Below, piece by piece: positions 31,011-64,000 of a stretch of 64,000 nt of DNA. Position 1 is the first letter of the stretch; every line of letters begins with the position of its first letter. The position numbers and the translations under genes are program-made. The stretch comes from a virus. The notes below the pieces were generated by a model. That model saw only the letters and a list, made by a program, of their open reading frames with translations, made no database searches and was not told where the DNA came from. The stretch covers positions 72,493 to 136,492 of the IMG/VR virus record IMGVR_UViG_3300045988_061465; one strand, given 5' to 3'.

Positions 31011-32984
31011 TTACTTCACTTCTTCAAACTCAGTTGTTTCGGCTTTCTTCTCCTCCAACTCTTTCTTGCCAAGAATACTTTTCAGTGTATCAGCGAAAGG
31101 TATAGAGCGAAGCAAGTCGAACGCAGGATTCAAGTTCTCAGCAGTTTTAGCCATGAAGTTACCAGCGGTATTCTCGTTACCATAAACAGTAACCTGTCCA
31201 AGGTGAACGTGTTCAAACATCTGAGCAGATGCTTCTGCAATACCTGTCAACTGGTCAACTGTCTTATACTGAACCACCATTTCCGGAGTCAAGCCAGATT
31301 CAATCATCTTCTGGACTGCCAGAGCGGGAGCCATTTCAATAGCCTGGACTTTATCAGCCTCAGCCATTAAAGATGCTCTCTTACCCTCAGCTTCAGCAAG
31401 CAGTTTCTTTCTTGTACCTTCAGCTTCGGCTTCTAGCTGCAACTTTGTAGCATTTGCTTTAGCTTCTGCTTCTTTCAGAATTTCAGCAGCCTTGGCTTCT
31501 GCCTCAAGTACGGCTTTCTGCTTAACGGCTTCTGCCTCAATTGTGATACGTTCCTTCTCCTTTTGAGCGGGAACAATCGTCTCAGCATGAAGCTTAGCTT
31601 CCATAGCCAATGCAGCTGCTTCGTTTACTTCCAGTTGCTTTTCTTGCTTGGTTTTCTCGATAGTCATTTGAGCTTCTACCTTAGAAGTTCCTGCTACCTT
31701 TTCAGCTTCAGCCTTAGCTTTCTCGGCTTCTCCCTTAGCTTTAGAGACTTCAATTGTAGCATTTTGTTCTGCCACTCCTGCAATCTTATCAGCTTCGGCT
31801 GCCTTTACACGCTTGTCTGACTCATACTTAGCAACTGCAGCTTCCTGTTCGTTAATTGCCTTTTGCGTCTCAGCTTCCTGTTTTTGTTTAGCCTGAGCAA
31901 TACGAGTTTGTTTCTCTGCTTCTGCTTCTGCTTTCTTAGAGTCAGCTTCTGCTTTAGCCTTAGCTACATTAGCCTCAGCCAGTGATTCAGACTCTGCTCT
32001 ATTAGAATCGGCTTCTGCTTGAGCTTTAGCTATAGCTGAAATTTTCTCAGCTTCTGCTTTAGCTTTCTCCGATTCTGCTGCGGTATTAGCTTTAGCAATA
32101 TTGGCAGCTTGCTCAGCTTTCTGATTAGCAATACCTGATTGCTTATTCTTCTCAGCTTCTGCAAGTTTGATTTCTTTCTCCTGGTTAATCTCTGCCACAC
32201 GAACCTCTTGCTCTTGTCTAGTCTGAGCAACAGTAGTTTCACGCTCTTTCTCAGCGTCTGCTACAGCAATTTCACGTTGTTTGTTGGTTTCTGCAATCTG
32301 AATATCTCCTTTCTTCTTCTCTTCTGCAATGTCAGCCTGTGCCTGAGCAAGAGCTTTAGTTGCAGCTTTCTGACCTAGATTCTTGATATAGTTTGCATCA
32401 TCCGAAATATCAGCATTGTTAATGTTGATAATACTGAAACCTACCTTATTCAACTCGGTCTCAATATTCTCCTTAGCTTTGCCAATAAACTTGATTCTAT
32501 CAGCATTAATTTCCTCAATCGTCATTGTAGCCATTAAGCTTCTCACTTCACCAATGAGAATATCCTTGATTTGGTCTGAGATTTCAGAAGTTTTAGCTGT
32601 TAAGAATCTACTTGCAGCATTTTGCATTAATGTTTGAGTAGTTCCAATACCAGTGGTCAATGTTACAGGAATAGTTACCTTAATCATTTGACTGGAAACA
32701 CCAGTAACATTTACTTGAATTTGGATAGGTTTCAAGGACATTTTAGCCCAGTCTTGAATTACTGGCATTACGAATGTACCTCCACCATGAATGATTTTGG
32801 ACGGCAGAATAACTTCCTCCGACTTTCCAGTCTTCTCGTTAACTACCTTTTTCTTACCAGCCTTACCAAATACAACCAAGATTTCATCACTAGCACACTT
32901 ACGATACCGTGACAAAAGTCCAATAAAGGTTAAAACTACTAGCAATACAATAACACCTGCTACAATAAGAGTTTCTGTTGTCAT
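31011..32984 (-). CDS. flotillin-like SPFH-domain protein (YqiK family) with very long Ala/Glu/Lys coiled coil
   Basis: 657 aa. N-terminal transmembrane segment, then an SPFH core, then about 350 residues of AEAEK/AKAEAE repeats. Confidence 0.65.
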   Translation of the reverse strand: MTTETLIVAGVIVLLVVLTFIGLLSRYRKCASDEILVVFGKAGKKKVVNEKTGKSEEVILPSKIIHGGGTFVMPVIQDWAKMSLKPIQIQVNVTGVSSQMIKVTIPVTLTTGIGTTQTLMQNAASRFLTAKTSEISDQIKDILIGEVRSLMATMTIEEINADRIKFIGKAKENIETELNKVGFSIININNADISDDANYIKNLGQKAATKALAQAQADIAEEKKKGDIQIAETNKQREIAVADAEKERETTVAQTRQEQEVRVAEINQEKEIKLAEAEKNKQSGIANQKAEQAANIAKANTAAESEKAKAEAEKISAIAKAQAEADSNRAESESLAEANVAKAKAEADSKKAEAEAEKQTRIAQAKQKQEAETQKAINEQEAAVAKYESDKRVKAAEADKIAGVAEQNATIEVSKAKGEAEKAKAEAEKVAGTSKVEAQMTIEKTKQEKQLEVNEAAALAMEAKLHAETIVPAQKEKERITIEAEAVKQKAVLEAEAKAAEILKEAEAKANATKLQLEAEAEGTRKKLLAEAEGKRASLMAEADKVQAIEMAPALAVQKMIESGLTPEMVVQYKTVDQLTGIAEASAQMFEHVHLGQVTVYGNENTAGNFMAKTAENLNPAFDLLRSIPFADTLKSILGKKELEEKKAETTEFEEVK

Positions 32985-33001: not shown

Positions 33002-33520
33002 TTAGTTAAAATAATACTTTCCATTCTCAAATTTAGAAATTACCACACGAGTACCAACCATATATCCCATTTTTGGGACTTCTGGATAGGCCACAATTTC
33101 CTCAGAACCTCCATTTACTTCAATAGTAATGAAGAAATGGTTTTCACAAGGGACTGTGATAATCCCAACCCTTCCAATCAAGGCTTCACCCTCTTCTGGA
33201 ATAACTTGATGCTGGAGTTTTAAACAGAGTTTATATAAGTAGTAAAGTATAACCACGAAAAGAATACCGCATACTAATGCGATTAGATAATCATACCATT
33301 CTACAGAATGAGATACGGACTGCTTAACACAAAGCCATCCACTAACTCCCATTATAAAATGGACTAATCCCTTAAATGAGACAATATCACTCACATTCAT
33401 ATCTAGTTCTCCATCCAAATCAACATCTAAGTCAGTGTCTCCACCAAACCAAGATAAGATGAATTGAACTAGAAAAATACCATATGAAATGGCTGCCAAA
33501 AGATAATACACTTCACTCAT
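33002..33520 (-). CDS. NfeD-like membrane protein (partner of SPFH/flotillin)
   Basis: Multiple transmembrane helices, then a C-terminal soluble beta-rich domain (GRVGIITVPCENHFFITIEVNGGSEEIVAY...VVISKFENGKYYF). Adjacent to and co-oriented with the flotillin-like gene. Confidence 0.5.
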   Translation of the reverse strand: MSEVYYLLAAISYGIFLVQFILSWFGGDTDLDVDLDGELDMNVSDIVSFKGLVHFIMGVSGWLCVKQSVSHSVEWYDYLIALVCGILFVVILYYLYKLCLKLQHQVIPEEGEALIGRVGIITVPCENHFFITIEVNGGSEEIVAYPEVPKMGYMVGTRVVISKFENGKYYFN

Positions 33521-34552: not shown

Positions 34553-35032
34553 TCAGCTAAACATGCATATCATTGATGCTATAAAGAATACAATTCCTGT
34601 TAGAACACAGACCCATCCTCCAACATCATCTGCATTGTCAGATAGTTTGCTTTTTCCTATTATAGCAAAATAAATACATAGAATAAGTAAAATAAAGCCT
34701 ACTATCAATCCAGCAATTTCTTTATATAACAATTTCCATACTACAATAGTAATAGCTGTTTGTCCTAAATCTGATTCTGATATTCGTATAGCCGAATCTT
34801 CTACAGCTTTAAGAGTTTCATTAACCGCTACTCCTATTTCTTTACCTAAATTGGCATATTCAGAAACTTCCTTTATTTCACCCTTTATAGCTTTCTCTGT
34901 TGTTATCTTCTCGATTTGAGTTCTAGTTTCACTAGGCAACTTATCATAATCTTCTTGTGATATAGTTATCTGAGAAAAAGCTGCTACGCTCATCCAGAGC
35001 ATAGCAAGCATAAGTACAAGGAACTTTTTCAT
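34553..35032 (-). CDS. membrane protein (signal peptide plus C-terminal transmembrane helices)
   Basis: ORF track. Confidence 0.45.
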   Translation of the reverse strand: MKKFLVLMLAMLWMSVAAFSQITISQEDYDKLPSETRTQIEKITTEKAIKGEIKEVSEYANLGKEIGVAVNETLKAVEDSAIRISESDLGQTAITIVVWKLLYKEIAGLIVGFILLILCIYFAIIGKSKLSDNADDVGGWVCVLTGIVFFIASMICMFS

Positions 35033-35580
35033 TAGTCAAGCCATTCAAATTCTTTACCTTTAAAATGTCTTGCAAAACAAGCATCAAATACTAGCTTTCC
35101 AAACTGAGTTGACACATATTTGGCAATCTCTTCAGATTTGCACACAAGCATCCCAACATCGGAATAGGCAAAGCCGACGTCATTGCGAGAATAGAAATCG
35201 CCAAGACCCGCAATGCCACCAAGAATCGCAAGGCCGCCCACCAACGCGAATTTCTCGCCCTGATAACGGAAGTGTCCAATGACCTCTGCATCTTTCGGCA
35301 CCGATTTCATTCTAAAGAACCGAACCCGAGGATACCATACAGTTCCAGTTAATAGATTGAACTTATGCTTTTCATTCAGCGCATCCAGAATTGTTTGCAA
35401 CTTAGCTAGAGAACTTACGGACCTATTATAGCTAACAACATATCCAAGATAGTCTCTAGCGTCCTCATAGGTCTTTATTCGTCCCATAATATTCTCTGGA
35501 ACAATTTCAACATTACCTGTTTTGGCATTGTAGATAGGCTTGTAGCCATCTGGACATTCAATTTCAATAGTTCTTTTCAT
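35032..35580 (-). CDS. small protein carrying a second DGR variable repeat (VR2) near its C-terminus
   Basis: 182 aa. Residues EKFALVGGLAILGGIAGLGDFYSRNDVGFAYSDVG are encoded by a 96-nt GC-rich segment homologous to the DGR template repeat. Confidence 0.6.
   Translation of the reverse strand: MKRTIEIECPDGYKPIYNAKTGNVEIVPENIMGRIKTYEDARDYLGYVVSYNRSVSSLAKLQTILDALNEKHKFNLLTGTVWYPRVRFFRMKSVPKDAEVIGHFRYQGEKFALVGGLAILGGIAGLGDFYSRNDVGFAYSDVGMLVCKSEEIAKYVSTQFGKLVFDACFARHFKGKEFEWLD
35151..35246 (-). repeat. DGR variable repeat 2 (VR2), remote from the RT
   Basis: The reverse complement aligns over 96 nt with the TR at 62190-62285. About 30 differences sit at TR adenines. One differs at a TR thymine, and the first 4 nt do not match. 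Confidence 0.6.
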
Positions 35581-41274: not shown

Positions 41275-42301
41275 CACTATCAAAAGACCTTCCTGTGCCA
41301 CTCTCCTTTGAATTGTTTCACAACAATTACATAGTCTCTGGGCGTACTCATTATAGTCTCCAATAATACACAACAATAGTTCCCTACTCCGGACTTGAAC
41401 CAGAATCTTCTCCTTTAGAGGGAGATATACTGACTTGTACTAGTAGGGAAATACTCCACCTGCCTAAGCTCCTTATGGGAGCTGTAGGCTATCTAGAATA
41501 AGATGGAGAGTTATTTAGATAGTTTCCTATGCTATCTACGTTACCAACGTTCACTAAGAATATAGGTAGCTAATCCATATTCTTGCGACTGAGTTCGAGG
41601 TAGGAAATATACCCTTATGAGGTACCCTCTTATCAGCTAGCCTTATTTTAATCTAGCGGCTTATACTAGGCAACTTCTAAATAAATAAAATGCATAACTA
41701 TAAATGATATGCTTTGGTCTACTGGCATATCAGCAGTACTTCATAATATTGCTATAAGCGACCAACCCTATAGCTCAATCCTCTTGTAATAGTGTTTAAG
41801 TTTGCGAATATACACATTACAATCGTAGCAGTTATTTTCGGATATTTGGGCTATCTGCGTAACCCCGCTTTTGTTGCCTTAACAGGCTAAATGTTAGAGT
41901 AAATAATCATTTGTAGTATGAGTTATAAAACTCGTCCTACTGGCGATTTTTTGAAAACTGGAAAAAGTCGGAAAATTGGGTGCTGACGTTGTGGACAATT
42001 ATTCTCCTTACTCTCCATATTTTCACGTGAAACATACACGATTTTACTAGAAATGATAGTCTTTCCTATCAGCCAGACATAAAACTAAAACTACTACAAA
42101 AGTTAACTCGGTTTTTGATTTTTTTGTTTTGTTGTTGATTTCTCCGTTGACCAATGTTCCAATGATGGAGTTCATATGGGCATTTTATTTTAACTCATAA
42201 TACCTTAGAGCTGCACGTTTGACTTATTTTAAATCTCGTTGTGCGCTGAGATTACAATTAGATTCTGCCACTCTCACTTATTTATACACGAGAGAGTCGT
42301 G

Positions 42302-44821: not shown

Positions 44822-44893
44822 TGCCCTATGGTGTAATGGTTAGCACAGATGACTCTAAATCATTTAGTCTGGGTTCGAATCCTAGTAGGGCAA
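44822..44893 (+). tRNA. amber-suppressor tRNA-Gln (anticodon CUA)
   Basis: TGCCCTATGGTGTAATGGTTAGCACAGATGACTCTAAATCATTTAGTCTGGGTTCGAATCCTAGTAGGGCAA. Acceptor TGCCCTA/TAGGGCA is perfect. Anticodon stem GATGA/TCATT with loop CTCTAAA has U33, C34-U35-A36 and A37. It is a close paralogue of tRNA-Gln(UUG) at 30152-30223 and the only tRNA on the plus strand. Confidence 0.8.
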
Positions 44894-44911
44894 CGCCAAA
44901 AATTAATAGTT

Positions 44912-48878: not shown

Positions 48879-49089
48879 TGAAAAAGTTTATTTTAAGCCT
48901 GGGGATTGTGTTACTTTACGGTAGTGTAAAGTAATGCACTCTCCAGTTATGCTTGTTCTAAGAAGAGAAGCAGCTTTATTTAAAGATAACCAAGGATTAC
49001 GAGGACTAAGATGTAGATGGTTTACTGATTCTGGATTAATGCAGGAAGCAGTATTTAATACAAAGGATTTAATTAAAGTAGAAGAGTAA
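48865..49089 (+). CDS. DUF2158 (YodC)-like small protein with 1 in-frame TAG
   Basis: Hand translation METIDEKVYFKPGDCVTLR[TAG]CKVMHSPVMLV...GLRCRWFTDSGLMQEAVFNTKDLIKVEE, which matches the FKxGDxVxL...P.M.V...C.WF pattern. Confidence 0.5.
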
Positions 49090-49661
49090 TGGCTAATTAG
49101 GAAGAATTACAGAAGGCATTCATGGCATACTTGATACAAGATGCCCAAGCACAGGGAATACAATTACAATCAGAGCAAGATTTATAGGCTTACGCCGAAT
49201 AGCTTGGAGAAGATGGAATTAAAGCTAAGTATCAAGAATTTATGTAGAAGATGCAAGGTGGAATTATGGCTAGACTTGGGGCTAAACTAGAATACTATAA
49301 AAAATTAAAAGGAGTATGCCCAGAAGGAGAGGAACTTGTTTATTTTAAACAGGGAGGAAGAATCTGCAAAGCTTGCCAAAAAGCATAGAAAGGAACTAAG
49401 GTTACTAAGAAAGCTAATGAAGTTGACAAATTCAAGGCTGTAAGAGCTTAGTATAAAAAGGATATGAAATCTGCAAAGGATGAAGCATCTAGAGATTCTG
49501 TATCTATTAATAAATATAATGACTAGGAGGTCATGGCAAATAAGGGACACAAAGGAAACTTTAAAAATGGAAAATGGGTTCCAGATAGAACAAAATATGC
49601 TAAGAAAGATGCTTGTGGTTCTAAAATGAAAGTAAGTAAATGCGGTTCTAAAATGAAATAA
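49089..49661 (+). CDS. hypothetical protein with 7 in-frame TAG codons (190 aa)
   Basis: MAN[TAG]EELQKAFMAYLIQDAQAQGIQLQSEQDL[TAG]AYAE[TAG]LGEDGIKAKYQEFM[TAG]KMQGG... Reading TAG as Gln gives natural Q-rich helices. Ends ...GSKMKVSKCGSKMK then TAA. Confidence 0.55.
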
Positions 49662-49691
49662 AAAGATTAAAGATGTTAATGTTAATGATTG

Positions 49692-50258
49692 ATGAGTATG
49701 AATGTATTTAATTATAACACTTTAACTAAATAGTTAGAAATAAATGAACCAGAGCTTCTTCTAGTTAAAGAGTTTAAGGCTTTGATACAGAGAGATAAAT
49801 CTGTTGACAAGGAACGAGTAACTAGAGAATTATCTTACATTTATCTAGCTATTGATTGGAAGAGTCCTTATAGCCAATATTCAGAACATGAAAGACATGA
49901 TGAAGCTATTAGTGACTCTGGACTATCTGAATCCGAATTTAATGACCCGTTATTCAGGGAAGCCTGTAGAAAATACCGAGCATTGTAGGATTCTAACAAA
50001 TCAATAAAACTTCTAGAAGCAGCTAAAAGAGCGGCTGACTAGTTTATTGATTATTTTGATACTATAGTAGATTTAAATGAACGTGATAATAATGGCAAAC
50101 CCGTCTTTCAAGCTGAAAAGGTAATGAAAGAGATGGCTACTCTTCATAAAGTTCATGAAGAATTAGTAACACTAGAAGAGCAGGTTAAGAAAGAGCTTAC
50201 AGAACAATCTACTGTAAGAGGTGGAGCTACAGACGGCTTTGACCCAGGAGACTTTTAA
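49692..50258 (+). CDS. hypothetical protein with 3 in-frame TAG (candidate small terminase subunit by position only)
   Basis: Continuous frame MSMNVFNYNTLTK[TAG]LEINEPELLLVKEFKALIQRDKSV...RKYRAL[TAG]DSNKSIKLLEAAKRAAD[TAG]FIDYFD...GFDPGDF then TAA. Immediately upstream of TerL. Confidence 0.4.
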
Positions 50259-50260
50259 TT

Positions 50261-52621
50261 ATGCCTAGAAAGAAAAAAATATTACCTGAAGAAATCTAGA
50301 ATATAGTAGATTAGGTAAGAGAGAAAGAACAAAAAGAGGATGCCAAAGAAGCTAGAGAACTAGTATAGAAGATAAGAGAGGAAAGGGGCAAAAATGCTGA
50401 TTATTGGGATGTAAAAAGAGGAGATAAGATAGAGGTATTTGACCCTACTTTATCTTATGAAATAACTGGATATAGACCAATAGATGAAACACATGGTCTT
50501 GACTTCGACCCAGATTGGTTTACTGAGACCAGAGAAGTATATAGAAAAACTGGAAAGTATTGTCCATATCTAAAAGATAGTAAGAGATATAATGAGTTTT
50601 GGAAGGAATAGTATAGAAGATGTAAATATGGAATGACTGTTAATGGTTATACAATTACTGGAGATAACTATTTCTTCCTAAACTTCTACTAGCTTCCTAT
50701 TATTGATGATAACAAAGCATCTGGAGAAGGAACAAGTAGTGACTTTCCTATATTTTTCGCATCTCATTATATGTTCTTTCATTATCTATAGATGGCTAGA
50801 GTTCTGCATAAACACGCAGCTCTCATGAAAGCTCGTTCTATTGGATTCTCTGAAATAAATGCATCCTTATCTGCAAGAATGTATTCAGTAATCAGAAGAA
50901 GCAGAGTAATGATTACCTGTTTTAATGATACTTTCCTTAAAGGTACTTTTAGTAAGTTTGATAATGCTTTAACATTCTTGAATACTTGTACAGGAGGAGG
51001 ATTCTTCAAACTACGTTTGATTGACCAAGACTTAAGAAAGAAGTCCGGTAAACAGATTAAGGTAAACGGGCAGTTTGAGGATGTTGGGTTTAAATCAGAA
51101 GTAGTTGGAATAAACGGAGCTAAGGCATCTAATATTCGTGGAGACCGTGTTGACTTATTAATATATGATGAAGCAGGGTCTTGGCCTGGACTAGATACTG
51201 CTGTAGTGCAGGGACAAGAGCTTTGTGAAGTTCAAGGTAAACCTCGTGGAACAATGTTATTTGGAGGTACTGGTGGTGATATGGGTGCTCCATTAGCAGG
51301 TCTTAAGAAGATATATTATAATCCAAAAGCTTACAAAGTTCTTCCATTTAGACACAATTATACACAGGATGGGACTACTATTGAAAGTGGGTTCTTCATT
51401 CCATATTTTGTCTAGTCTCTAAATTCAGAATACATGGACCATAGAGGTGTATGTAATACAGTAGAATATAAGAAGTATCTATAGGAAGAGCGCGACAATT
51501 TATTAGCAGTTCCAGATGACTATCTAAAGAAGTGTGCCGAACGATGTTGGAATGCAGAAGAAGCATTTAATCTTGAAGGTGTTAACAAGTTCAACAAGAT
51601 TCTTATTGCAGACCAATTAGCTAATATAAGACTTAAGAAAATAGGACCAAGACCAGAATCTGGATACATAGACTATTTCTATAAAAATAATAAACACACC
51701 TAGGATAATATAGATGGTTTTAAATGGATTCCTAATATTAACGGAAAAGTAAAAATACTTGAACATCCTGTATGGTCTGATTTGTATAAAGAGTAGATGG
51801 ATAAACTTAGATAGGAAGCTGAGGAAAGGGGAGAAGAATTTGAATCTCCAGCGTATAAAGAAATGCGTGATTTATATGTTGCAGGAATAGATGGTATTGA
51901 TATAGGAGCTAGTCAAACTTCAAAAGAAACAAGAGATCCTTCTGATTTCTGTATAACTATAAAAAGAAGAGCATTTGGTCTAAACGAACCGTAGTATGTT
52001 GCTATGTATAAAGACAGACCTAATGACATTAGAGAAGCCTATAAAATAGCCATGTGTTTAGCTAGATACTATAATTGTAGAATAAACATAGAAGCTACCC
52101 GTGTAGGTATGATTACCTGGGCTAGAGAAAAGGGTTGTTTAAACTACTTTATGAAAAGACCTAGAGCTACTCTAACAGACGTTAAGAATGGAACTACTAA
52201 ATAGTATGGAACACCTGCTACCAAAACCATTATAGAACAACATACTGATTTGACAGCAGCCTTTATTGAGGATTTCTGTCATACTATATGGTTTGAAGAA
52301 ATGTTAGACCAATTTACTGGATATAATGATGAGAATAAAGGTAAATTCGATATTGTAGCCGCTGTGGGAATGACAGAATTGGCAGACTAGGAATTGTCAG
52401 GAAGATAGCCAGTGCTTGTTGAAAAAGAAGTTGAACAATTCCAAGATTATGGTTATTATTACGACGAGAGGGGAATCAAAAGATTTGGGGTTATACCAAC
52501 TTCTAAGACTTTTGAAACTAACATACAAAAAAATGAATACGATGACCCATACAGAATTGAAACAAGTGATCCTAGGTTATATGAGAGACTTGTACAAAAT
52601 GGAATACGTAGGTGGGCTTGA
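50261..52621 (+). CDS. terL: terminase large subunit (TerL) with about 16 in-frame TAG codons
   Basis: A single frame links ORF-track pieces 50792..51415, 52004..52204 and 52412..52621 across TAGs. Contains ...YFFLNFY[TAG]LPIIDDNKASGEGTSSDFPIFFASHYMFFHYL[TAG]MARVLHKH..., the ATPase-like DLLIYDEAGSW and a nuclease-domain C-terminal half. Ends at TGA. Confidence 0.7.
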
Positions 52622-52877
52622 AATTCAGAACCTAGATCCAGTTGGTTATAAGGTATCATTTAACTTTGATAGGTCAGAGATGCCTTTAGTCATTATAGCT
52701 GATTTACCTGATGAAGAATTTCTCCCATTTATAAAGGAAGAATTAAGAAGTAGGAAGTTACAAAGAGTTAAATACTATAATGCAACTAAACTTCCTCCAG
52801 AACAGCATAATTTATGTTATGAAAGAAAAAGAACTAATAGACAAGACGAACGAGGCTATTGCGGAGCTTGTATATGA
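52542..52877 (+). CDS. small standard-code protein overlapping TerL 3' end (start uncertain)
   Basis: ORF track 52416..52877. Internal starts at 52542 and 52599 are more plausible. Cys-rich C-terminus. Confidence 0.35.
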   Translation: MTHTELKQVILGYMRDLYKMEYVGGLEIQNLDPVGYKVSFNFDRSEMPLVIIADLPDEEFLPFIKEELRSRKLQRVKYYNATKLPPEQHNLCYERKRTNRQDERGYCGACI

Positions 52878-54990
52878 TAAGTACGAATTATAGAAAGCCT
52901 ATAATTACTACAACGGGAAGAGAGACCCAGAATAGTTTCGTTACCTGGAAGAAAACTTCGGAATAGGTAGTCCTACTTCTGTAGAATTTACACCATTACT
53001 AAAGAAGCACGTAGATGCTCTAGTAGGGGAATATCTAGGAACCCCTATCCTTCCGAAGATTTCTTGTAAGGATTCAGATACCATTAGTAATATCACCAGA
53101 GAAAAATAGTTGGAAATAACTAAAGGGATAGTTAAATTTCTTAGAGACCATTTAAGTAATTCTATTCTGAAATTTATCGACGGAAAAGATATTACAGATA
53201 AAGCCGTGAAGACTTAGTTAGATAAAATTATTCAAGACATTGATTAGTCTTTTATTTCTCAATATGAGATAGCTGCATAGAATATTATTCATTATATCAT
53301 GCAGTCTAGAGAAACCGATTTAATAACTAAACTCCGATAGTTACTTACAGATTTATTAATTACTGGCTATACATTTTTCAGAGTAAAATCATCATCTTCT
53401 GGAACTAACATAGAAATAGAAGTTCTGAATCCTTTAAATACTTTCGTAGATAGGAATCCAGAATCTCCATATGTTAAAAATTCGTATAGAGTAGTAGTTA
53501 GAAAATGGATGAGTAAAAGCTAGATATTAGCTAAATATGGAAAAGAAATCTCTAGAGAAGATTTGAAAAGACTAAAAGATGAATGGAGAGCTGATGATTC
53601 AGCTGCAGTTTATAGAAGAGTTTATGGCGACACTTGTACTATAGTAAATGAAGACTAGAATCATGAAACTATTCCTGGATACCCAGATAATGAATATAGT
53701 GCTCATAGATTTTAGTTAATTCCTGTTTATGATGTAGAGTGGATAGAAACTGATGACGATTTTGTAATGTAGAGATACAATACCATTAGAATTGGAGAAG
53801 AAATATATATTCTGAGAGGTCTGGACAAGACTGTTATGAGGTCAAAAGATAATCCTAATTTCTGCTCTTTGTCTGTAAATGGGGTATATTTCTTAAATCG
53901 TTCTCAACAACCATACTCCCTGATATTAAAATGTGCACATCTATAGGATAGATATGACTTGTTAAATTATTATAGGGACAACCTGATAGCTAACAGTGGT
54001 ACTGCTGGAGTAATCATGGATATGTCATTGCTTCCTACTAACCTAGGCGTAAAATGGCCAGAAAGAGTGTAGAAATGGTTAGCATACAAGAAGGGTGGTA
54101 TCATGTGGATTGATTCCACTTAGGAGGGAAGAAATGATGGAGCGCAAGCACCTAACTAGATATACAATGGATTTGATGATACCTTAAAAGCTTAGGCTGT
54201 ATAGGCTATTGAATTAGCAATTCAATCAGTAGAACAAACTACATCATCTATAACTGGAGTATTTAGAGAAAGATTAAATGGAATAGAAACTCACGATGCT
54301 GTAACTAATATTAAGCAAGGTGTTACTAACTCTTACATAGTAACCAAGCATTATTTCTAGTAGATGGATCTAATCACTTGTGAGATATTATTGGATAGTC
54401 TAAACTAGGCTAAAATAACATATAAGAAAGGATTGACTGGTACTATTATACTTGGAGATAAATACTAGCAGATATTTACAGCACTTCCAGAATATTTTAC
54501 GGTTACTGATTATGACATCCATATAACTTCTAGCTCCGAAGTAATGGAAGATTTACAAACTATTAAAGCTATTATTCCAGAGTTTGTTAAAAGTCAGCAA
54601 ATGGATCCTGACATCATATTTGAAGCACTAACTGCTAAGAGTCTTACAGACCTTAAATACAAGGTTAAGAAAGCAGTATAGATTCGTAAAGAAGAAAACA
54701 ATTAGCTATAGTAGCTATAGGAAAAATTGGAAGAAACTTCACAATAGGCATAGCAGTTACAGCAAGAACTATAGAAAGCTTAGTAGAAGATAGAAAGTTT
54801 GGATGAGTAGAGATTAGGATTAGAATAGCAGAAAATGTAGTTAGAATATAAGGTTAACTGGCTCAAAGCTCAATCTGATTCTACATATAAAGATAGACAA
54901 ATGGATATAGAAGAAAAGAGAACTGAAATAGAGTTGGCTTAGCTTCATGATGGAAATCCATATAATGACAAAATAAGACAAATACATTAA
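52819..54990 (+). CDS. portal protein with about 35 in-frame TAG codons
   Basis: 723-codon frame MKEKELIDKTNEAIAELVYDKYEL[TAG]KAYNYYNGKRDPE[TAG]FRYLEENFGIGSPTSVEFTPLLKKHVDALVGEY... The C-terminal coiled coil becomes LQQLQEKLEETSQQAQQLQQELQKAQQKIESLDEQRLGLEQQKMQLEY if TAG is Gln. Position after TerL fits a portal. Confidence 0.65.
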
Positions 54991-54991
54991 T

Positions 54992-55726
54992 ATGGCAACT
55001 GGAACAATTGTATATAATAAGGATTAGCAATAGATTTATCCTATTTCAGATGGTTCGGTAATTATTAGTAATGCTTCTGGTTCCAAATCAAATGTGGAAG
55101 AAGATTTAAAGAAACTATTTAAATAGGTGTCAGACCTTTCTGGTTCTAGTGAGGCGGTAAATAATATTATTATTAAGATTCATTACTTACCTGCTGATAC
55201 TGCTGACGAATCTGAGATAAAATTATCTAATAAATAGTGGACTGATACTTTTGAACTTCCGACTGAGGAGAATCCATACATCTGGAAAAGAACTAAATTT
55301 ACTTTCTAGGGAGCTGACGAATCTCAGGGAACTACTATTTATGAGATTGTAGCAAGTGATGTTTCTACTGTTATTTAGAATATATACACTAGAACTGAGG
55401 GAATAACTCCAGTTATTGAGTATAAGTAGAAAACAGATGAGGAGGGAAATCCTCTATATGTAGATTCGGAAGGACATGAAACAACAACTGTTACTCCAAC
55501 TAAAGCATATGACTATAATTATTATTGGAATGGGGAACCAGCTGGTAAGTTAAATAGTCTACCACCGACTCCTGAAGGTTAGTCATATACATGGACAGAC
55601 TATCCTCAAGATATTAGTTTATCATTTAGTTCAGTTTTTATGTCTAGACGTATACGACAAGAAGGTAAGTGGAAACCATTTTCTACCCCTGCTCAATATG
55701 GTCAATGGCCTACTACTGAGTCTTAA
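54992..55726 (+). CDS. structural protein with 8 in-frame TAG (244 aa)
   Basis: Hand translation MATGTIVYNKD[TAG][CAA][TAG]IYPISDGSVII...GKWKPFSTPAQYGQWPTTES then TAA. Confidence 0.5.
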
Positions 55727-55745
55727 TTATTATAATATGGAATTT

Positions 55746-56465
55746 AGTATTGATATACATACCCAGATTAACGGGGAAATAACTATTGAAGACTTTTCAA
55801 AGGAATATGGATAGTATATTGATGAAGATTTAGAGGTAGTAACTTCCTATGATTCTTATAAGTATAGTGAAAGTGCTACCCTAAATACTATCATAAAAGT
55901 TAGTATAGGAGATGCTACTTTGATAGACGTACTTCTCAATGACCATACAGAGGATTTAGACTCTTGTACATTTAAGGTAAAAGAAGATGGATATTATGTA
56001 GTAGACCACATAATTCTTCCTAATATGAAATGGTATGAAAATTCATCTGATGAATACAAGGAGTATTATGAAACTATCTATATAACTGATGGGGAGAAAC
56101 TATATAAAGAAGTAGATGGAGAGCTAGAGGAATGTACTGTAAAAGAAATCCTTGAAAGAAATATAGAAGGAACTACTATCAAAAAATGTAAGGTAGATGT
56201 GTTCTTTACAGGAAATCTACAATAGTGTTATATTAACTACTGTAAGAAACTCTTTGACTCTTTATTAAATAAGTGTTTAACTAGAGAACATGATGCAGAT
56301 ATATTTGCAAGAGATTTTATCTGGATGACACTTAATATTATAGATTATTTAATAGGCTTTAAACAATTCATGGAAGCTGAAAGATTGTTAGCAATGTTCC
56401 GCACTTGCGGTGGATTCTGTGACAATCACCATGAACATAAACGTATAGGTTGTGGATGCTCTTAA
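55746..56465 (+). CDS. structural protein with 3 in-frame TAG and a Cys/His-rich C-terminus (239 aa)
   Basis: Links ORF-track 55920..56225 across TAGs. Ends ...FRTCGGFCDNHHEHKRIGCGCS then TAA. Confidence 0.5.
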
Positions 56466-56620
56466 AAGAAAGGCTATTAAAAGGTATGAGGATTTCCTTA
56501 AAAGGGTTAGAAAGGGATATAGACCAGATTATTAGGATATTTTGAATCTAATTTGTTTTATTAACCTACCCGTAAAATTAGATAATCACGAATTTATTAA
56601 ATAGCAATTATTGAATCATA

Positions 56621-58210
56621 ATGATACAGCCTATTTACACTTCGGTAAGCAATGCTGATATAAAGCCTTGTGGAAAGAAAGGACATTTAATAAAAAGTGA
56701 ACCTATACCTCTCCTAAGAAATAACTATCTTGGAGAATATAGAACTGAATTAGAAAGAGCTAAGGTTAGAAAGAATCTAGGTATTGCTGATGAGTAGAGT
56801 CTTCTTTGGGGAAATATAGAAGGAACTATAGAAGCCTAGAAAGATTTAGTATAGTACATAGAATAGAAATGGACTTATACTAGTGATGTTGCAGAGAATA
56901 TCAATACTGTAAAAGATGCCTTAGATTATGCTTTATTCTTTATAAGTTAGTACAAAGCTAATACAGAAGAAATAGAGGAAATAAAAGTTGATATAAGTAA
57001 TATCAGAACTTCTATTACTGTACTTAGGGAAGAACTTGAAGAAGAAATTGAATCTAACAGAACTGGCATAAACAATCTTTCTGAGAAAATAATCGAGATT
57101 AATGAGGCAATAGAGGATATTAACGAGTCTATCAAAAATATAGATGTCGACAAAAACATCTAGAATTGGATAACTAATAGTCTAAGAAACTCCAAAACCA
57201 TAGAAATAAAGGATGATAATACTCTAGAAGTAATTCTATCCTAGTAGGAGGATAACGCAATACATCTTATTTAGTAGGAAATTCCTCCAGTAGAGGAGGA
57301 AGGAGAGCCTTCCACAGTAGTCCTACCTGGAATATATGTAAAAGACCTGGAACCATCTCTAACAGAGGTAAAGGAAGAAGTTAAGGGAGTATAGGAAGCT
57401 TAGAAGACCACTGATTCTAAAGTAGATTCTAATACTGAGAATATCACAAATATATAGACAAGTTTAGAAACTATAGCTACTTATCAAACTGAACTTCCAG
57501 ATGCTACTACTTCTACTGTTATTCAAGGAACTACAGTCGAAAAATTGAAAGGAAAGCCGTTTAATGAGATTATAGATACTCTATTATTTCCTACTGTTGT
57601 TAGAGATTTGGTTTATCCTTAGTTGTATTATAGTTTTACCTCTTAGATTGTGGAGGTAGGATCCGCTTTACTTACTCCTACTTTAACATTTATAAAAAAT
57701 GATGCTGGAGAGGAAACTAGTAGAGAAGAAACTATTACCTATAATGACTCTCCTGTAGAATCTGAAACATATGATTCTATCGGTGTTTATGTGCATTCTG
57801 GTACTGTAAATTATGCTGCTGGAGAATATCTTATTAACAATAAAGGAGAAGTTACAGACAAGAGAGTGGAAGCTGGTTCAATATCAACTACAGCATAGGT
57901 GACTGCTACCTACCCTTGGTATTCTGGTAATACAGATAGTTTAATCAAATAGAGTCTTGTTCCATTTGGACAATTTTCTGGAATTATTACATTTTCATTA
58001 AGTGGAAAGGCTATTATAAAATTACCTGGAAGTAATACTTAGCTAAATTCATTTACAGTAGATGGAGGACTAGGATACCTAAATGTTGATTTAAGTGGCT
58101 GGGAAACTTCTACCGAATAGATAAATGGATTTCCTTATAAAGTATGGACTAAGAAGGATACTTATTCTTCAGCATTGCCTCATCAAATTAACTTTACTTT
58201 ATCACAATAA
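56621..58210 (+). CDS. tail fiber or other structural protein with about 25 in-frame TAG (529 aa)
   Basis: Links ORF-track 57650..57898 into one frame MIQPIYTSVSNADIKPCGKKGHLIK...INFTLSQ then TAA. Has a central coiled coil and a beta-rich C-terminus. Confidence 0.55.
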
Positions 58211-60075
58211 TGGCATTTAAATATACAGGTGATGCTACATTAGGTGTTGCTTTAACCGTAGAAACTCCTAAACCTCTTGATAATAGAACAGTAGTCAATA
58301 ATTTAGACGAATTATATTCTATTCCGGAGAAATATGCTTATCAAGGCATGACCGTTTCAAATATAGATAACGGAAATATTTATATGTTAGTAGATAAGTC
58401 TAAGATTAAATACAAAGAAGGTTGGAAAGCTTCTTATGAATCTATTTAGATAATCACCTGTACAGAGGCTGAATATAAGGAATGGTCTGAGAATACCACA
58501 GAAGATTTTAAACCTATAGACGAAGGTAAAACATATCTTCATGCAGAAACATATTATTATATATATGAAGACAGCCTAGATGATGATTAGTTTTATTTAT
58601 CAGCAGAATGGGGTAAAAAGATAGAGGAATAGTTGAAATAGAAAGCTCTAAATACTACTGTCGTATAGATTAGAACGGATTTAGACTAGACAATCTCTAA
58701 CCTTTCCAAGTATGCTACCCTTGAAGAATTAACTGAGAATTATGCCCCTAAAACTGACCTAGATTTAGAGAACCCAGAATCCTTGTTATCTAAAGCCTTA
58801 TCTAACCATTATACTAAGGAAGAAACTGATGACATATTTGTTACCAAAGAAAGTCTTAGAGGAGAAGGAATGGAAGGAGATGATTTTGTCTTTGTTACAA
58901 AGAAATAGTATGACGAAGACCAATAGGCTATTCAAGATGAGCTAGATAAGACTTTAAAGGTAGATGGGGACGGTTCGCTAGAAAGTATTACTGTAGGATA
59001 GATAAAGTCTCCAGCAGAAGGAGAGGATTAGCTAGTAGTAGATGTTAAATCTGATGGATTGTTTGTTGGAGAAGACCAATTCGCCATGATGTCAGATGTT
59101 CCTAATCTGGTTACATTAACTGAAGAGGAATATTTAAGACTGGTAGAAGAAGAGGCTATAGAACCTGACACATATTACTATGTGTATGATGTAACAAATG
59201 ATGCTAAAGTCTATATTACTAAGGAGTATTTAGATCAAAATTACCATACTACACATCAGTATTAGTCCTGGGTTGCTACTAATTATTACTCAAAGACATA
59301 GATTGATGAAATTGTTTCTGGTTTATAGAAACTAGGAAGCTACGTTACTACAGAAGATATTAAAGCATACTACACTAGCTCGTAGGTAGATGAAAAGTTT
59401 CTTACAAAAGAAAATGCTCAATCTACATACGCCACTCAATAGTCATTAACTGACCTTTCCAATTAGATAGCAGAGGAGTATGTGACAAAAGAAAGTTTGA
59501 GAGGAGATTCTCCCGAAACCGGTGATGACGATTTTATATTTGTTACCTAGAAGAAATATTAGGAAGATTAGGATGCCGCTTCTAAGGAATTTAGTACAGA
59601 GCTTCTGAAATCAACCTCTATAGAAACTTCTGATATTACTATTTAGAAAATTGTCGAAAAAGAAGTACAATAGGGAATAACTGGAGAAAGTTCAGAAGAT
59701 GAAACAACTGGACAGACTATTGAAAGTTCTGTTAAACTTACTACAGAAGACGATAGATTATTAGCATCTGGAAAGCAAGTTGCTCTTACAGAAGAGGTTC
59801 CTAAATTGGTATGTCTTCCACAAACAGATTATGATGACCTAGTTGAAAATAATAGGACAGAGAACGATACGTACTATTGTACTTATGGAGAAAAAGATAT
59901 ATAGGATACAGGATATGTCAGAAGTGAATATCTAACAGAACGTTACTATACAAAAGCTGAGGTGGAAGGATTAATAAAGGCTGCTGTAGACGAATTGTAG
60001 AAGAAAATAGATGCAATATAGCCTGGTTCTGGTAACGTACAGGTAGATGGAGAAAATGAACAATTAATATTTTAA
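58210..60075 (+). CDS. tail-fiber-like protein with internal repeats (about 621 aa, about 30 in-frame TAG)
   Basis: Links ORF-track 58210..58449 and 59059..59265. Repeated modules FVTKESLRG(E/D)...DDF(V/I)FVT(K/[TAG])K[TAG]Y(D/[TAG])ED[TAG].A. Confidence 0.55.
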
Positions 60076-60291
60076 ATAGTATGGGAACAATTTGGGTTGA
60101 AGGGTAGTTTAAGAACTCAGCAAAACCAGTAAAAGTTGTTGGAGGAAATGTAGGAGGATCTGGAATAGACCCAGATACATTAAAGAACTACGCTACCAAG
60201 GCTGAACTGTAGAAAGCTGTTGAAGACTTAACTGCCTCCATAGAAAAAATAGATCATAATGTAGAAGAAGAAACTTTAATAATACAATAAT

Positions 60292-62112
60292 ATGGCAGCT
60301 ATCAAATCTATAAAGGTTGGAGAAACCGTATATGACTTAAAGGCTACCTATGATGGCTCTGGAAATGCTATAGATTAGACATACGCAAAATCTAGTGCCA
60401 TTCCAACTAAAGTGTCTTAGTTATAGAATGATGAAAATTATTTAAAGGAACACTAGGATATAAGTGGTTTAGCTACTAAAACGGAGTTGGAAGGTAAGGT
60501 AGATAAAGAATTAGGAAAAGGACTTTCTGAAGCTAATTACACAAAAACTGAAAAACAGAAACTTAGTGGTATTGCAGATAATGCAAATAATTATGTACAC
60601 CCAACTACTTCTGGAAATAAACACATACCTGCTGGAGGAGCACTTGGATAGATTTTAACCTTTTCTGAAGATGGGACTGCATAGTGGGCAGATACTAGTA
60701 CTAAGTTAGAGGAACAATTTGATGCTCTTAATACTGCTTGGGAAGAATTACAAAAAGAACAATAGAGTCTAAGCAAACAAGTCACAGAGTTAAGCAGTAA
60801 CGTAGACTTATACTCTTATGGGGTAGAATGGGATATTACCGTATCTTCTCCTATCCTTACTAGAATAGGAAACCCACTGTTACATAAATCCCTTCCTATT
60901 TAGTCTGCTTACAGAGGATGTGTAGCAAATAACGGTGTGGTAAATTACTATTTATATCCGGACGATTGGGCTTACAAAGAAGATAGGAGTACTCCTTCTG
61001 TGCTTGATGGAACCGACGGGACTGTAAGAGTCCATACTCCTAAATTTTATGGTAAATCAGGCTCTAATGGAAATAAAAGATGGGTTAGAATTTCTCTAGT
61101 AAAGCTTGATGATTCGTGGGCGGAAATACCAGAACTATTAATTGACGCATATAGAAATACAGTTGACAATACTGTGTCAGAAACCCCTAAAGCTGTGTCC
61201 GTGGTCAATACTACAGAAGCATTTAGAGGCGGTGGAAATAGAGCACAATTCGATGAGTATCTAACTACTAAACTTGATACCAAAGATGCTTTTAGAAGCG
61301 ATTTAGGAAAACCTAGAACTAATGTTTCTAGAGCTAATATGAGAACTTATGCCACAAATGCAGGCTCTGAATTATTGTGTTATGAATATTATAAATGGAT
61401 ATTCTACTGGAACTATGTAATAGAATACGCTAACTTTAACTCTCAGGCTGCCTATAATGCTGAGCTTACTTCTGATGGTTATCGTCAAGGAGGACTTGGT
61501 CCTGGAGTTACAGACTGGAGTAACTCTGCTACAAGTTGGTCTGGATATAATGGAACCTATCCTATTACTCCATGTGGTTATTGTAATGATATTGGTAACT
61601 TCACTGGAATCAAAGATTTAGTTATTCCAGAATGTACTGCAACAAACGGAACAGATACAGTAGCGACTAAGACATTTAAAGTTCCAAGATGGAGAGGTTT
61701 TGATAATCCATTTGGAGATATTTGGACAAACCTAGATGGAGTAGTTATTCAAAGAACTGCGGCAAATGAAATCAGTAGTGTATATACTACTACAAACAAG
61801 GAAGAGTTTACTGACGTAATTGGCGACAAGACTATAGCAGGATATGAGGTAGTACAAGATGGATACATTAAAGAGTTTGACTTGGGAGAGACAGCAGAGA
61901 TTATACCATCTTCTTGTACTGGAGCTTCAACTACAACTTATATGTGTGATTACCACTATTGCAACGCTAGCTCTACAGCGCTTCGCACGCTACTGGTGGG
62001 CGGCCGTGCGGTTGATGGTGGCGGTGCGGGTCTTGGCTATTTCGGTTCTTACTGTGGCGTCGGCGATGCCGATTCCAATGTTGGGTTCAGGACTCTAAAC
62101 AGAGTATCTTAA
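60292..62112 (+). CDS. tail fiber, DGR target; C-terminal C-type-lectin/FGE-like variable domain ending ...NVGFR
   Basis: The N-terminus carries a phage tail-fiber-type motif (KSSAIPTKVS[TAG]L[TAG]NDENYL...ANYTKTEKQKLSGIADNANNYVHPTTSGNKHIP). Links to ORF-track 60937..62112. The last 35 codons are the GC-rich VR1. Confidence 0.7.
61990..62085 (+). repeat. DGR variable repeat 1 (VR1) at the 3' end of the tail-fiber gene
   Basis: Aligns over 96 nt with the TR. All about 31 mismatches sit at TR adenines. About 65 percent GC in an AT-rich genome. Encodes LVGGRAVDGGGAGLGYFGSYCGVGDADSNVGFR. Confidence 0.8.
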
Positions 62113-62189
62113 GATATAAAATATAGAAATCGATTTAGATATAAATCGTAGGATATTACTTCTAAAAACCGTTGGTTGGCAAAAAAGAA

Positions 62190-62285
62190 CTACTAGTAGG
62201 CAGCAATGCGAATAATGGTAGCAATGCAGGTCTTAGCTATTTCAATTCTAACAATGACGTCAGCAATGCCAATTCCAATGTTGAG
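62190..62285 (+). repeat. DGR template repeat (TR), Asn-codon-rich
   Basis: ctactagtaggcagcaatgcgaataatggtagcaatgcagg... In the VR frame it encodes LVGSNANNGSNAGLSYFNSNNDVSNANSNVE, with adenines in AAY/AGC codons. It sits in the intergenic gap between the tail fiber and the RT. Confidence 0.8.
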
Positions 62286-62428
62286 TTATTATATATTTAG
62301 AACAATTTATTTTATTTTTTTTTAGTTTGTTAAGTGATATCCTTGCCTCTAGGCAAAAGACAACGTAGTGTTAAATGAAGGGTGTTAGTAGGTTAAATCT
62401 CGAAAGCTTCCGATGAAATATATAAAAA

Positions 62429-63652
62429 TTGAAACGTGTAGGATATTTGCACGAACGAGTGTATGATTTGAAAAACATCGAATTAGCTGATGATAAGGCT
62501 AGAAGAAATAAGTCAATTCGATGTGGTATTAAGTAGCATGATAAGAATAGATTAGAAGAAAATAAGGAATTATCAGACAAATTAAAATAGCTAATCTATT
62601 AGACTTCTGAATATAGTACATTTATAATATATGAGCCTAAAGAAAGATTAATCTTTAGACTTCCATATTACCCTGATAGAATCACTCATCACGCTATAAT
62701 GAATATTATGGAACCTATCTGGACCAGCATTTTTATAGATTAGACATATTCCTCTATAAGAAATAGAGGGATTCATAAGGTAGAGTGTGATTTATTCAAG
62801 GTATTGTAGAAATACCCAGATGAAACTAAATACTGCCTAAAAATGGATATAAGAAAATTTTATCCATCTATAACACATGACATCCTGTATGAGATGTTGT
62901 AGAAGAAAATAAAGGATAAGAAACTGTTAAGTCTATTGAAGGAAATAATATATTCAGCCAAAGGAGTTCCTATTGGGAACTATCTATCATAGTTCTTTGC
63001 AAATTTATATCTGACATATTTTGACCACTGGATAAAAGAGGAGTTAAAATGTAAGTACTACTTTCGATATGCTGACGATATTGTGATTCTTGGTAATGAC
63101 AAGAATTATTTGAGAAATGTATTAGTATCTATAAAACTGTATTTAAAACAAGTTCTTAATTTAGAATTAAAACCTAACTACTAGATATTTCCAGTAGAAA
63201 GTAGAGGAGTAGATTTTGTAGGCTACAAATTTTACCACACTCACGTTCTATTAAGAAAATCTATAAAAATGAGAATGTTTAAGCTTATAAATCTATATAA
63301 GCAAAATAAGATTGATAGAGAAGAATTGGAAAGAAGAATGAGATCTTATTTCGGATGGATGAAATTCTGTAATTCTAAGAATTTGTTGAAAAAGATAGAA
63401 ACTTTGACTGGTTTGAAGTTCTCAAATTGGAATGGAAAGGAAGTCAATATATCTAAGTTTTATAATAAATATATTCACATTATAGAGGTAGTTGATTATC
63501 ATAGCCATTTTAGAGTGCACTTTATGTATAACAACAAACCCTATTATTTTAAAAGCAAGAATAAGAAATTACATTATTCTTTGATTAGATACAAATTTCC
63601 TATAAATTTTAAAGTAACACCTTATGTTAGAACCGAATAGAATACAAACTGA
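62429..63652 (+). CDS. DGR reverse transcriptase, 9 in-frame TAG codons
   Basis: Hand translation contains TFIIYEPKERLIFRLPYYPDRITHHAIMNIMEPIW (RT motifs 1-2), MDIRKFYPSITHDIL (motif 3), GVPIGNYLS[TAG]FFANLYL (motif 4, where the DGR-RT-conserved Q of the SQ dipeptide is encoded by TAG), YFRYADDIVILGND (motif 5 YADD) and FVGYKFYHTHVLLRKSIKMR (thumb). Start is TTG at 62429 or GTG at 62459. Ends at TGA. ORF-track 63269..63640 is its C-terminal piece. Confidence 0.8.
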
Positions 63653-64000
63653 TATTTGTCCTCAAATAATTCAAAAACTTGGAAATGGAACATATTATTA
63701 TAACTATGATATATAGGAATCTAATATTTTAGTTTTAAATGAGGAAAATCAAGAAAAAAAAGAAACTAGTTATAATTTTATACAAGTTTTAATAACTGGA
63801 TAGCCTAATTATAAAGATTGCGTTAAAGCAGTAATTAGAAGTTTTCTTACTATTGATGAAGAATTTGATTTAATTAATTCTTACAACAGCTATTCAGAAA
63901 ATCTTATAGATGATTTTGAAATTGTTAATTAGTATAAAGAATATTTAAACTTATTAAAATAGATTAAAACTAAAGTTAAAGATGACTTTACTAAATTATG
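63624..64000 (+). CDS. TAG-containing ORF of unknown function, partial (runs off window end)
   Basis: ATG at 63624 overlaps the RT 3' end. Frame MLEPNRIQTDICPQIIQKLGNGTYYYNYDI[TAG]ESNILVLNEEN... has at least 3 in-frame TAG and no TAA/TGA up to position 64000. Confidence 0.3.

Follow-up and report, generated by a model that had tools for sequence, protein, structure and literature searches.

Does the tail-fibre gene of a gut phage that is followed by a near-copy of its own 3' end and by a reverse transcriptase (RT) gene belong to a working diversity-generating retroelement (DGR), and what does such an element rewrite? We addressed this question in a 64,000-nucleotide stretch of viral DNA, positions 72,493 to 136,492 of the IMG/VR record IMGVR_UViG_3300045988_061465, which was analyzed at its full length and is called the window below. 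Our analysis leaves little doubt that the locus is a functional DGR of a gut phage of ~190 kb, probably a zeta-type crAss-like one, in which TAG is recoded to Gln, and that the element rewrites two target genes. The evidence comprises an adenine-only pattern of differences between a template repeat (TR) and its variable repeats (VRs), the family to which the RT belongs, the recoding, the near-invariance of the TR combined with hypervariable VRs, and a conserved RNA in the spacer upstream of the RT. An initial annotation had already recognized a DGR at this place; that reading was correct but incomplete, missing a second VR 27 kb away as well as the spacer RNA. The central cassette consists of the following parts:

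60292-62112, + strand: target gene 1, encoding a tail-fibre/tail protein of 606 aa with eight in-frame TAG codons read as Gln
61990-62087, + strand: VR1, a variable repeat in the 3'-terminal part of target 1, matching the TR with 23/23 mismatches at TR adenines; 27 alleles in 27 genomes
62190-62287, + strand: TR, an intergenic template repeat rich in adenine (31 A), identical in 24/29 related genomes
62339-62427, + strand: RNA structure similar to Rfam RT-17/RT-18 between TR and RT, with hairpin 1 at 62343-62356 and domain 2 at 62380-62411
62429-63652, + strand: DGR reverse transcriptase, 407 aa, with a probable TTG start and nine in-frame TAG codons

VR1 and the TR align on the + strand over 98 nt without a gap, their starts being offset by 200 nt and the two copies separated by 102 nt. 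The repeat thus lies where the initial annotation had seen it, although its length had been given as 96 nt and the distance as 105 nt; likewise, the GC content of the VR, put at about 65 percent, is 60% (TR, 40%; window, 35%), and the differences, put at about 31, number 23. As the TR contains 31 adenines, it appears that this count had been quoted in place of the mismatches. The rule derived from the comparison was nevertheless accurate, namely that every difference falls on an adenine of the downstream copy and that all other positions are identical. All 23 mismatches (19 A>G, three A>T and one A>C) coincide with TR adenines, eight of which are unchanged in VR1, and not one is found at the remaining positions (67/67 identical). 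The hypergeometric probability of placing 23 of 23 mismatches on the 31 adenines by chance is 5e-16. Read in the frame of target 1, the TR has 11 AAY codons, in line with the Asn-rich peptide ascribed to it, and a codon check of the TR revealed that no stop codon can be reached by mutating any of its codons. The TR sits, as described before, inside the gap separating target 1 from the RT.

VR1 corresponds to the last 41 codons of target 1, the protein ending in ...SNVGFRTLNRVS, which bears out the predicted NVGFR terminus. The protein matches the PHROG family phrog_5302 ('tail protein', E 7e-85) and is homologous to the 'tail protein' encoded upstream of the RT in the crAss-like phage cr7_1, and its gene follows the terminase, portal and further late genes. 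Neither sequence nor profile searches with target 1 against PDB and Pfam gave a match, hence no C-type lectin fold is assigned. Public gene calls of target 1 homologues (P0271-P0278; window 60937-62112) are only 391 aa long and represent the standard-code open reading frame (ORF) that begins after the last in-frame TAG; similarly, the RefSeq coding sequence of the cr7_1 RT starts well downstream of the homologous N-terminus. The recoding thus leads to a systematic truncation of DGR genes in databases.

Judged by its sequence, the RT belongs to the DGR clade. It matches Pfam RVT_1 and phrog_1423 (E 8e-113), and its closest relative of solved structure is PDB 8ub7_A (E 1.4e-46), which by tblastn is 100% identical to Brt of Bordetella phage BPP-1, while retron, group II intron and defence RTs follow at 5e-15 or worse. 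The canonical DGR motifs that had been reported are present, with IGNYLSQ (GxxxSQ) at residues 182-188 and YADD at 214, and the protein groups with DGR RTs. Moreover, it retains the equivalents of Arg74 (R74) and Ile181 (I181) of the Bordetella reverse transcriptase (bRT), residues that have been described as modulators of adenine mutagenesis.

The initial annotation had described the RT as TAG-containing, and its nine in-frame TAG codons are part of a wider pattern. Under the standard code, the ORFs of the + strand are broken up, and treating TAG as a sense codon raises ORF coverage of this strand from 12 to 36 kb. The late genes of the + strand (49000-64000) contain 8-35 TAG codons each, for example 15 in the terminase, 35 in the portal gene, 19 in the gene at 56621-58210 and 24 in that at 58210-60075, whereas the - strand genes at 1-43 kb (replication, auxiliary and tRNA block) have essentially none in frame. 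Within the RT, the TAG positions 188 (in GxxxSQ) and 252 (NYQ) are occupied by Gln in cr7_1, in the crAss-like phage LMMB and in Bordetella Brt, and homologues have K, N, R or Q at the remaining seven. Two of the 28 tRNAs in the window have the anticodon CTA:

41379-41449, - strand: suppressor tRNA, anticodon CTA, detected by ARAGORN and Rfam
44822-44894, + strand: second suppressor tRNA, anticodon CTA, detected by ARAGORN and Rfam; closest to the tRNA-Gln(TTG) of the window (73% identity)

On these sequence features, we assign TAG to Gln, a recoding of the code 15 type. A CTA suppressor tRNA is needed for translating the RT and target 1. Because of the TAG asymmetry between the strands, these two genes are translatable only under suppression, whereas the second target (target 2, described below) is not so restricted. 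The 3' end of the RT gene also depends on the code: read in the standard way, it stops at the TAG at 63638-63640, and with TAG as Gln it continues for four more codons to the TGA at 63650-63652, with the RT of one relative, genome A, reading on to 424 aa. The start of a further ORF, of 125 aa, is located inside this 3' end:

63624-64000, + strand: small acidic ORF of 125 aa (pI, isoelectric point, 4.6) that overlaps the 3' end of the RT gene; phrog_11557; conserved

We then considered whether the RT is assisted by an accessory protein. The initial annotation found no Avd-like gene between target and RT, and we detected no Pfam or NCBIfam match to an Avd family either among the ORFs flanking the cassette or among the 41 Avd-sized ORFs of the 64-kb window, which is to be set against a genome of ~190 kb. 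It is conceivable, although we consider it doubtful, that an accessory factor is present in unrecognized form, with either the C-terminal part of the RT or the ORF overlapping its end replacing Avd. Residues 329-407 of the RT constitute a basic, conserved extension (pI 9.9), which LMMB and cr7_1 share and Brt lacks. The small ORF, too, is conserved in cr7_1, where an overlapping small ORF is annotated, and in related genomes, being present at full length in the related locus L008. However, neither candidate shows similarity to Avd by Pfam, NCBIfam or PHROG, the small ORF matching no Pfam or NCBIfam family at all, and TR/VR cassettes also occur with relatives of the RT whose match ends near residue 320. 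Avd is a basic protein, unlike the acidic product of the downstream ORF, and we therefore rejected this ORF as an Avd homologue. As a whole, the idea of an Avd substitute draws on sequence comparison. A system without Avd would have precedents, as published DGRs of RT lineage 3 and most of those in crAss-like phages typically lack it (PMC7290462, PMC12386605).

The reach of the element extends beyond the tail fibre. When the TR pattern was searched with its adenines masked, the window yielded three matches (zero expected by chance), namely VR1, the TR itself and a segment at 35154-35238 on the - strand:

35152-35243, - strand: VR2, the second variable repeat, matching TR 62194-62285 and encoding residues ~113-143 of target 2
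35032-35580, - strand: target gene 2, 182 aa, no TAG, in the non-structural, standard-code half of the genome; phrog_11581 (unknown-function category)

VR2 is situated 27 kb from the cassette on the opposite strand. It differs from the TR at 21 adenines and at one non-adenine position (T62238>G), and it agrees with VR1 at only 13 of the 31 adenine positions. Target 2 is flanked by a tRNA-His gene and by the gene for a membrane-anchored protein, in a region that also holds SPFH/Band-7, PD-(D/E)XK nuclease, radical-SAM-like and tRNA-ligase-CPD genes. Its product is part of a wider family of ~180-210-aa phage proteins and is represented by 828 protein clusters at 90% identity, which differ almost only in the VR block, with ~11 variable positions in ALVGGxAxxGGxAGLGxFxSxxGVGxAxSxVGML. 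An AlphaFold2 model computed from a diverse alignment of 80 sequences reached a pLDDT (predicted local distance difference test) score of 95.5, as compared to 49 for an alignment of close homologues only, and matched no solved fold. As sequence and profile searches against PDB and Pfam also returned nothing, neither the predicted structure nor the profiles disclose a C-type lectin, immunoglobulin (Ig)-like or other known fold. We rejected the notion that target 2 is a miniature lectin domain related to target 1, given that a profile comparison of the two aligned only the 36-residue VR block. Target 2 is unreported as a DGR target in zeta crAss-like phages.

To follow the behaviour of the repeats in nature, we compared ~30 related human-gut phage genomes of 185-193 kb from viral and metagenome collections. 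The VR2 flank is present in 34 viral contigs and the majority TR variant in ~30; of 29 intact TRs, 24 are identical and three carry the variant of the window. The VRs behave very differently from the TR, as VR1 alleles are distinct in 27 of 27 genomes and VR2 alleles in 36 of 37. Relative to the cognate TR, 72-73% of the adenine positions are changed, as opposed to 0.1-0.6% of the non-adenine positions (8/1428 for VR1 and 2/1490 for VR2). In VR2, the entropy over 33 genomes amounts to 1.28 bits at TR-adenine positions, compared to 0.03 at the remaining positions of the TR and 0.10 for the flanking sequence. Two human-gut genomes of 189.5 and 193.5 kb illustrate the same process at close range, with flanks ~98% identical and the same TR, yet with different VR1 and VR2 alleles whose differences lie at adenine positions. 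The VR heterogeneity that the initial annotation had proposed to look for is thus seen between genomes. Because the TR is near-invariant while VR1 and VR2 alleles are distinct, almost only at TR-adenine positions, we conclude that the element is active in nature.

Two irregularities were observed in this collection. Seven of the eight non-adenine mismatches of VR1 are a recurrent T>G at the equivalent of 62194 in seven relatives (e.g. L005, L065, L042), directly 5' of the first AG adenine (TR CTGCTAG, VR1 CTGCGGG), which could stem from a templated error or from polymorphism at the 5' limit of the homing tract. Furthermore, chimeric TRs with VR-like bases at adenines are found in L049 (contig ..._056908), where the 3' part is VR-like, and in L057 (contig ..._059870), where it is the 5' part; these could have arisen by VR-to-TR gene conversion or be assembly chimeras across the repeats.

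The same data bear on whether both VRs are live. It is improbable that only VR1 is still rewritten here, with VR2 being an old or occasional target that owes its pattern to ancestral diversification or recombination. Such a scenario would fit the remote position of VR2 on the other strand, its 3' flank, which has only 'GTTGGG' in common with VR1, and the T>G change at a non-adenine site. It would also fit two observations outside the window: in genome B (L033, contig ..._058615), VR2 has a 3-nt indel and several non-adenine differences and appears to have decayed, with VR1 remaining canonical; and in a sister clade, which has a different TR and an RT 71-74% identical, no second VR was seen at the stringency used, leaving one VR per genome. 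However, neither the near-unique VR2 alleles nor the minute fraction of non-adenine mismatches to the cognate TR nor the concentration of entropy at adenines is what an abandoned target should show. VR2 follows the clade-specific TR variants at four non-adenine sites, having T in the window and in genome A and C in the majority. As both VRs carry the non-adenine variants of their own TR, copying from it has continued, and we retain the reading that one TR serves two live targets.

The collected alleles further allowed us to resolve the mutation spectrum by sequence context. It differs between adenines followed by G and other adenines, and the former sites of the TR are as follows:

62195, 62198, 62202, 62220, 62228, 62235, 62262 and 62284, + strand: TR adenines followed by G (window positions)

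At adenines before G, the VRs read G in 358 of 372 cases and keep A in 12. In other contexts, they show A in 36%, G in 33%, T in 21% and C in 10%. More distant clades (42 loci with 31 distinct TRs; L078-L157) follow the same rule, with 95% of AG adenines converted to G (n=345), so that A is kept at only 3-5% of AG sites. In total, ~110 TR/VR pairs were used, 47 from TR scans and 66 from an RT-anchored scan, the two sets overlapping; at the RT-anchored loci, TRs and VRs were detected by adenine-masked matching, a stricter detector having found 4 of 51 loci. Selection for Gly can explain AGY>GGY changes but not those at synonymous sites, and fourfold-synonymous third positions in AG context show the same bias (G 67, A 4 and T 1 in the distant clades; G 50 and A 2 in the clade of the window), which rules out protein-level selection as the whole cause of the A>G excess. 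The excess of A>G in the VR1 of the window is thus due to the AG-context bias. In a 2026 study of the Bordetella enzyme, the 3' neighbour dominated the context, with C as the commonest misincorporation and an average error of ~31%, but its effect was weaker than the near-complete conversion of AG to GG observed here. So strong an AG-context bias is unreported. The data provide a context-resolved in vivo mutation spectrum for an Avd-less RT lineage, at a time when 3'-neighbour effects have only just been characterized for the Bordetella enzyme, and they bear on the engineering of DGRs as mutagenesis tools.

The spacer between TR and RT contains a conserved RNA immediately upstream of the RT start. 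The segment 62339-62427 matches the Rfam RT-17 model over its full length with 29.7 bits, which is below the gathering score of 40.4, and it also matches RT-18. Both cr7_1 (38.6 bits) and L149 of another clade (35.4 bits) have an RT-17-like motif in the corresponding place. The consensus fold of 21 distinct spacers comprises a 5-bp hairpin (62343-62356) and a three-part stem (62380-62411), with compensatory changes in 6 of 12 pairs. In this fold, 97.6% of the alignment cells are paired, compared to 82.8% in shuffled alignments (0/500 reaching the observed value), and the covariation score is 0.517, compared to 0.205 in shuffles (0/500) and at most 0.12 in slid controls. As no significant z-scores resulted when the VR flanks and the TR-plus-spacer RNA were folded thermodynamically, we used only comparative evidence for the spacer RNA. 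In BPP-1, the RT-10 RNA is located between TR and brt, and other RT motifs have been predicted to serve other DGRs (Weinberg et al.). By analogy, we infer that the spacer RNA may be a cis-acting element for RT recruitment and priming, the counterpart of the Bordetella Sp/RT-10 region. An RT-17-like spacer RNA is unreported in this lineage.

The signals that would direct homing to the VRs are less distinct. In agreement with the initial annotation, we recognized no extended initiation of mutagenic homing (IMH) element in the flanks of VR1, VR2 or the TR, the homology ending 1-3 nt past the last A/G difference. VRs read GT[TC]GGG where TRs read GT[TC]GAG in 47/47 pairs; this difference may not mark an IMH, because the site obeys the general rule by which A before G becomes G. 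A small hairpin follows VR1:

62092-62105, + strand: small hairpin 3' of VR1 (ACTCT-AAAC-AGAGT), a weak candidate for a target-recognition stem-loop

Among relatives, its stem is invariant and its loop varies (AAAC, GAAT, AAAT). Hairpins of 5 bp with a 4-nt loop follow both VR1 and VR2, the stem of the latter being broken in some genomes, and none follows the TR.

Several of these results weigh against a functional, two-target DGR. No Avd is recognizable in the window, and the TTG start of the RT at 62429 was placed from the alignment only. No extended IMH could be discerned, and the flank hairpins are short and energetically not significant. VR2 of the window has a mismatch outside the adenines, and VR2 of genome B appears decayed. 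Finally, the diversification seen is one between genomes. Some of the same points, namely the missing Avd, the unclear IMH and the non-adenine mismatch in VR2, together with the many fragmentary DGR cassettes reported for crAss-like phages, could be taken to indicate that the cassette is a relic of past activity and no longer functional in this lineage. We consider this very unlikely, as the RT reading frame is intact under the code of the phage and keeps all catalytic motifs, VR alleles are unique in nearly every genome, even where flanks are ~98% identical, non-adenine positions are 99.4-99.9% conserved and thus show no sign of drift after a loss of activity, and both the TR and the spacer RNA are strongly conserved. 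That no retroelement is involved, and that the tail-fibre 3' end was tandemly duplicated and then changed by ordinary divergence or positive selection, can practically be dismissed: diversifying selection on receptor-binding tips is common, and most changes in VR1 are A>G (19/23), but ordinary divergence cannot confine all differences to the adenines of a non-coding copy, synonymous sites included, a DGR-clade RT lies directly downstream, and the second copy, in an unrelated gene, obeys the same rule.

A functional DGR at this locus would operate as follows, with TR transcription, spacer priming, replacement of the VRs by cDNA and late timing modelled on the Bordetella paradigm. Transcription would cover the intergenic TR together with the structured spacer RNA that follows it. 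Synthesis of the RT would have to await the decoding of its nine amber codons by the CTA suppressor tRNAs, probably late in infection. The RT would copy the TR RNA into cDNA, misincorporating opposite adenines, and the cDNA would then take the place of VR1, in the 3'-terminal part of the neighbouring tail-fibre gene, and of VR2, in the 182-aa gene on the opposite strand. In this way, ~11-13 codons per target would be randomized, never to a stop. The system would work without a recognizable Avd, as reported for lineage-3 and crAss-like DGRs.

Regarding its origin, the nearest annotated relatives of the cassette are found in cr7_1 and LMMB, whose RTs are 57-58% identical. Relatives of RT and tail fibre belong to the Crassvirales, and terminase large subunit (TerL) and portal match PHROGs, a DNA search with TerL retrieving only unannotated 'Bacteriophage sp.' records. 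The window is organized in two strand blocks, and related human-gut contigs measure 185-193 kb. Together, these features point to a zeta-type crAss-like phage of the human gut as the probable carrier. For zeta crAss-like phages, a 2025 publication described DGRs that lack Avd and contain amber codons (PMC12386605). The group ctoVY1/cthgQ11/3717_85572 described there has genomes of 182-189 kb, 24-27 tRNAs and a GC content of ~34.5-34.8%, a CTA suppressor tRNA and amber codons inside the RT genes, and a layout of tail-fibre target, TR and RT with no Avd, the RT having 414 aa and a variable C-terminus (PMC12386605). The window and its 189-193 kb relatives fit all of these features, compared by description. 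However, one tail-fibre VR was reported for that group, multiple TR-VR pairs being noted only in Lera and ct1yV3 (PMC12386605), whereas the window has a second VR in a remote non-structural gene.

Other systems share individual properties. LMMB (RT lineage 3 of Wu et al. 2018; PMC7290462) and cr7_1 (NC_055895) have the same order of target gene, VR, TR and RT without avd and the same C-terminal RT extension, and cr7_1 also has the RT-17-like RNA upstream of its RT; however, they belong to different crAss families (Intestiviridae, Suoliviridae), with genomes of ~100 kb, other TR sequences and spacings of 270 and 165 nt. The closest precedent for the pair of targets is Quimbyvirus ('Quimbyviridae', Benler et al. 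2021, PMC8008677), in which one TR serves a target beside the tail genes as well as a distal one, which lies on the other strand among nuclease/tRNA-ligase-type genes and is for that reason thought to be non-structural. Target 2 is similarly placed near a PD-(D/E)XK nuclease, a tRNA-ligase CPD-domain protein and tRNA genes. Quimbyvirus nevertheless represents an unrelated phage family, its RT is split by programmed frameshifts rather than amber codons, and both of its targets have C-type lectin domains, whereas no known fold was detected in target 2. The Bacuni phages of Bacteroides uniformis (PMC8143477) also have a distant target gene in addition to the one next to the RT, but they are siphoviruses with Avd, a standard code and a VR at the 3' end of both targets. 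In BPP-1, according to the literature, the DGR serves a single target, and Avd is present along with a 35-bp IMH and a GC-rich stem-loop; the window differs in its two targets and recoded code, its RT is longer by an extension of 80 residues, and neither Avd nor an extended IMH was detected.

Accordingly, the cassette is of an already described kind and, taken alone, ordinary, confirming the 2020-2025 publications on crAss-like phages; its combination of a structural and a non-structural target also has its precedent in Quimbyvirus. The remote VR2 implies that DGR surveys limited to the surroundings of the RT or to the standard code undercount targets in abundant gut phages. Being heavily diversified and having a confidently predicted but unmatched fold, target 2 could add to the range of structures known for DGR variable proteins and hint at hypermutation being used for something other than adsorption. 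Should its site of action be intracellular, where it might bind a variable factor of the host or of a competitor in the setting of the nearby nuclease and tRNA-repair genes, a single TR would evolve both adsorption and a function in intracellular conflict. We would go further only tentatively and suggest that target 2 might found an unrecognized class of phage DGR variable protein, small, TAG-free, probably early, non-virion and with a fold unlike C-type lectin or Ig, diversified by an Avd-less RT that, with its conserved basic C-terminal extension, may be self-sufficient and may convert A to G near-deterministically at 'AG'.

Some further features of the window are recorded here. A phage RNase H gene at 10842-11303 (- strand; Pfam E 5.5e-25) could in principle process RNA:cDNA hybrids. 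In the neighbourhood of target 2, the SPFH/Band-7 protein encoded at 31011-32984 (- strand) has 657 aa with a long Ala/Glu/Lys-rich region, and its gene adjoins that of a small membrane protein at 33002-33520 (- strand). A full-length Rfam match to transfer-messenger RNA (tmRNA; 73 bits, gathering score 47) covers 557 nt at 22297-22853 on the - strand and may represent a phage tmRNA with an insertion, ARAGORN not reporting it. Rfam also places an extra tRNA at 23812-23884 (- strand), and a RAGATH-14 RNA at 41505-41678 (- strand; 166.7 bits, gathering score 149.1) adjoins the suppressor tRNA at 41379-41449.

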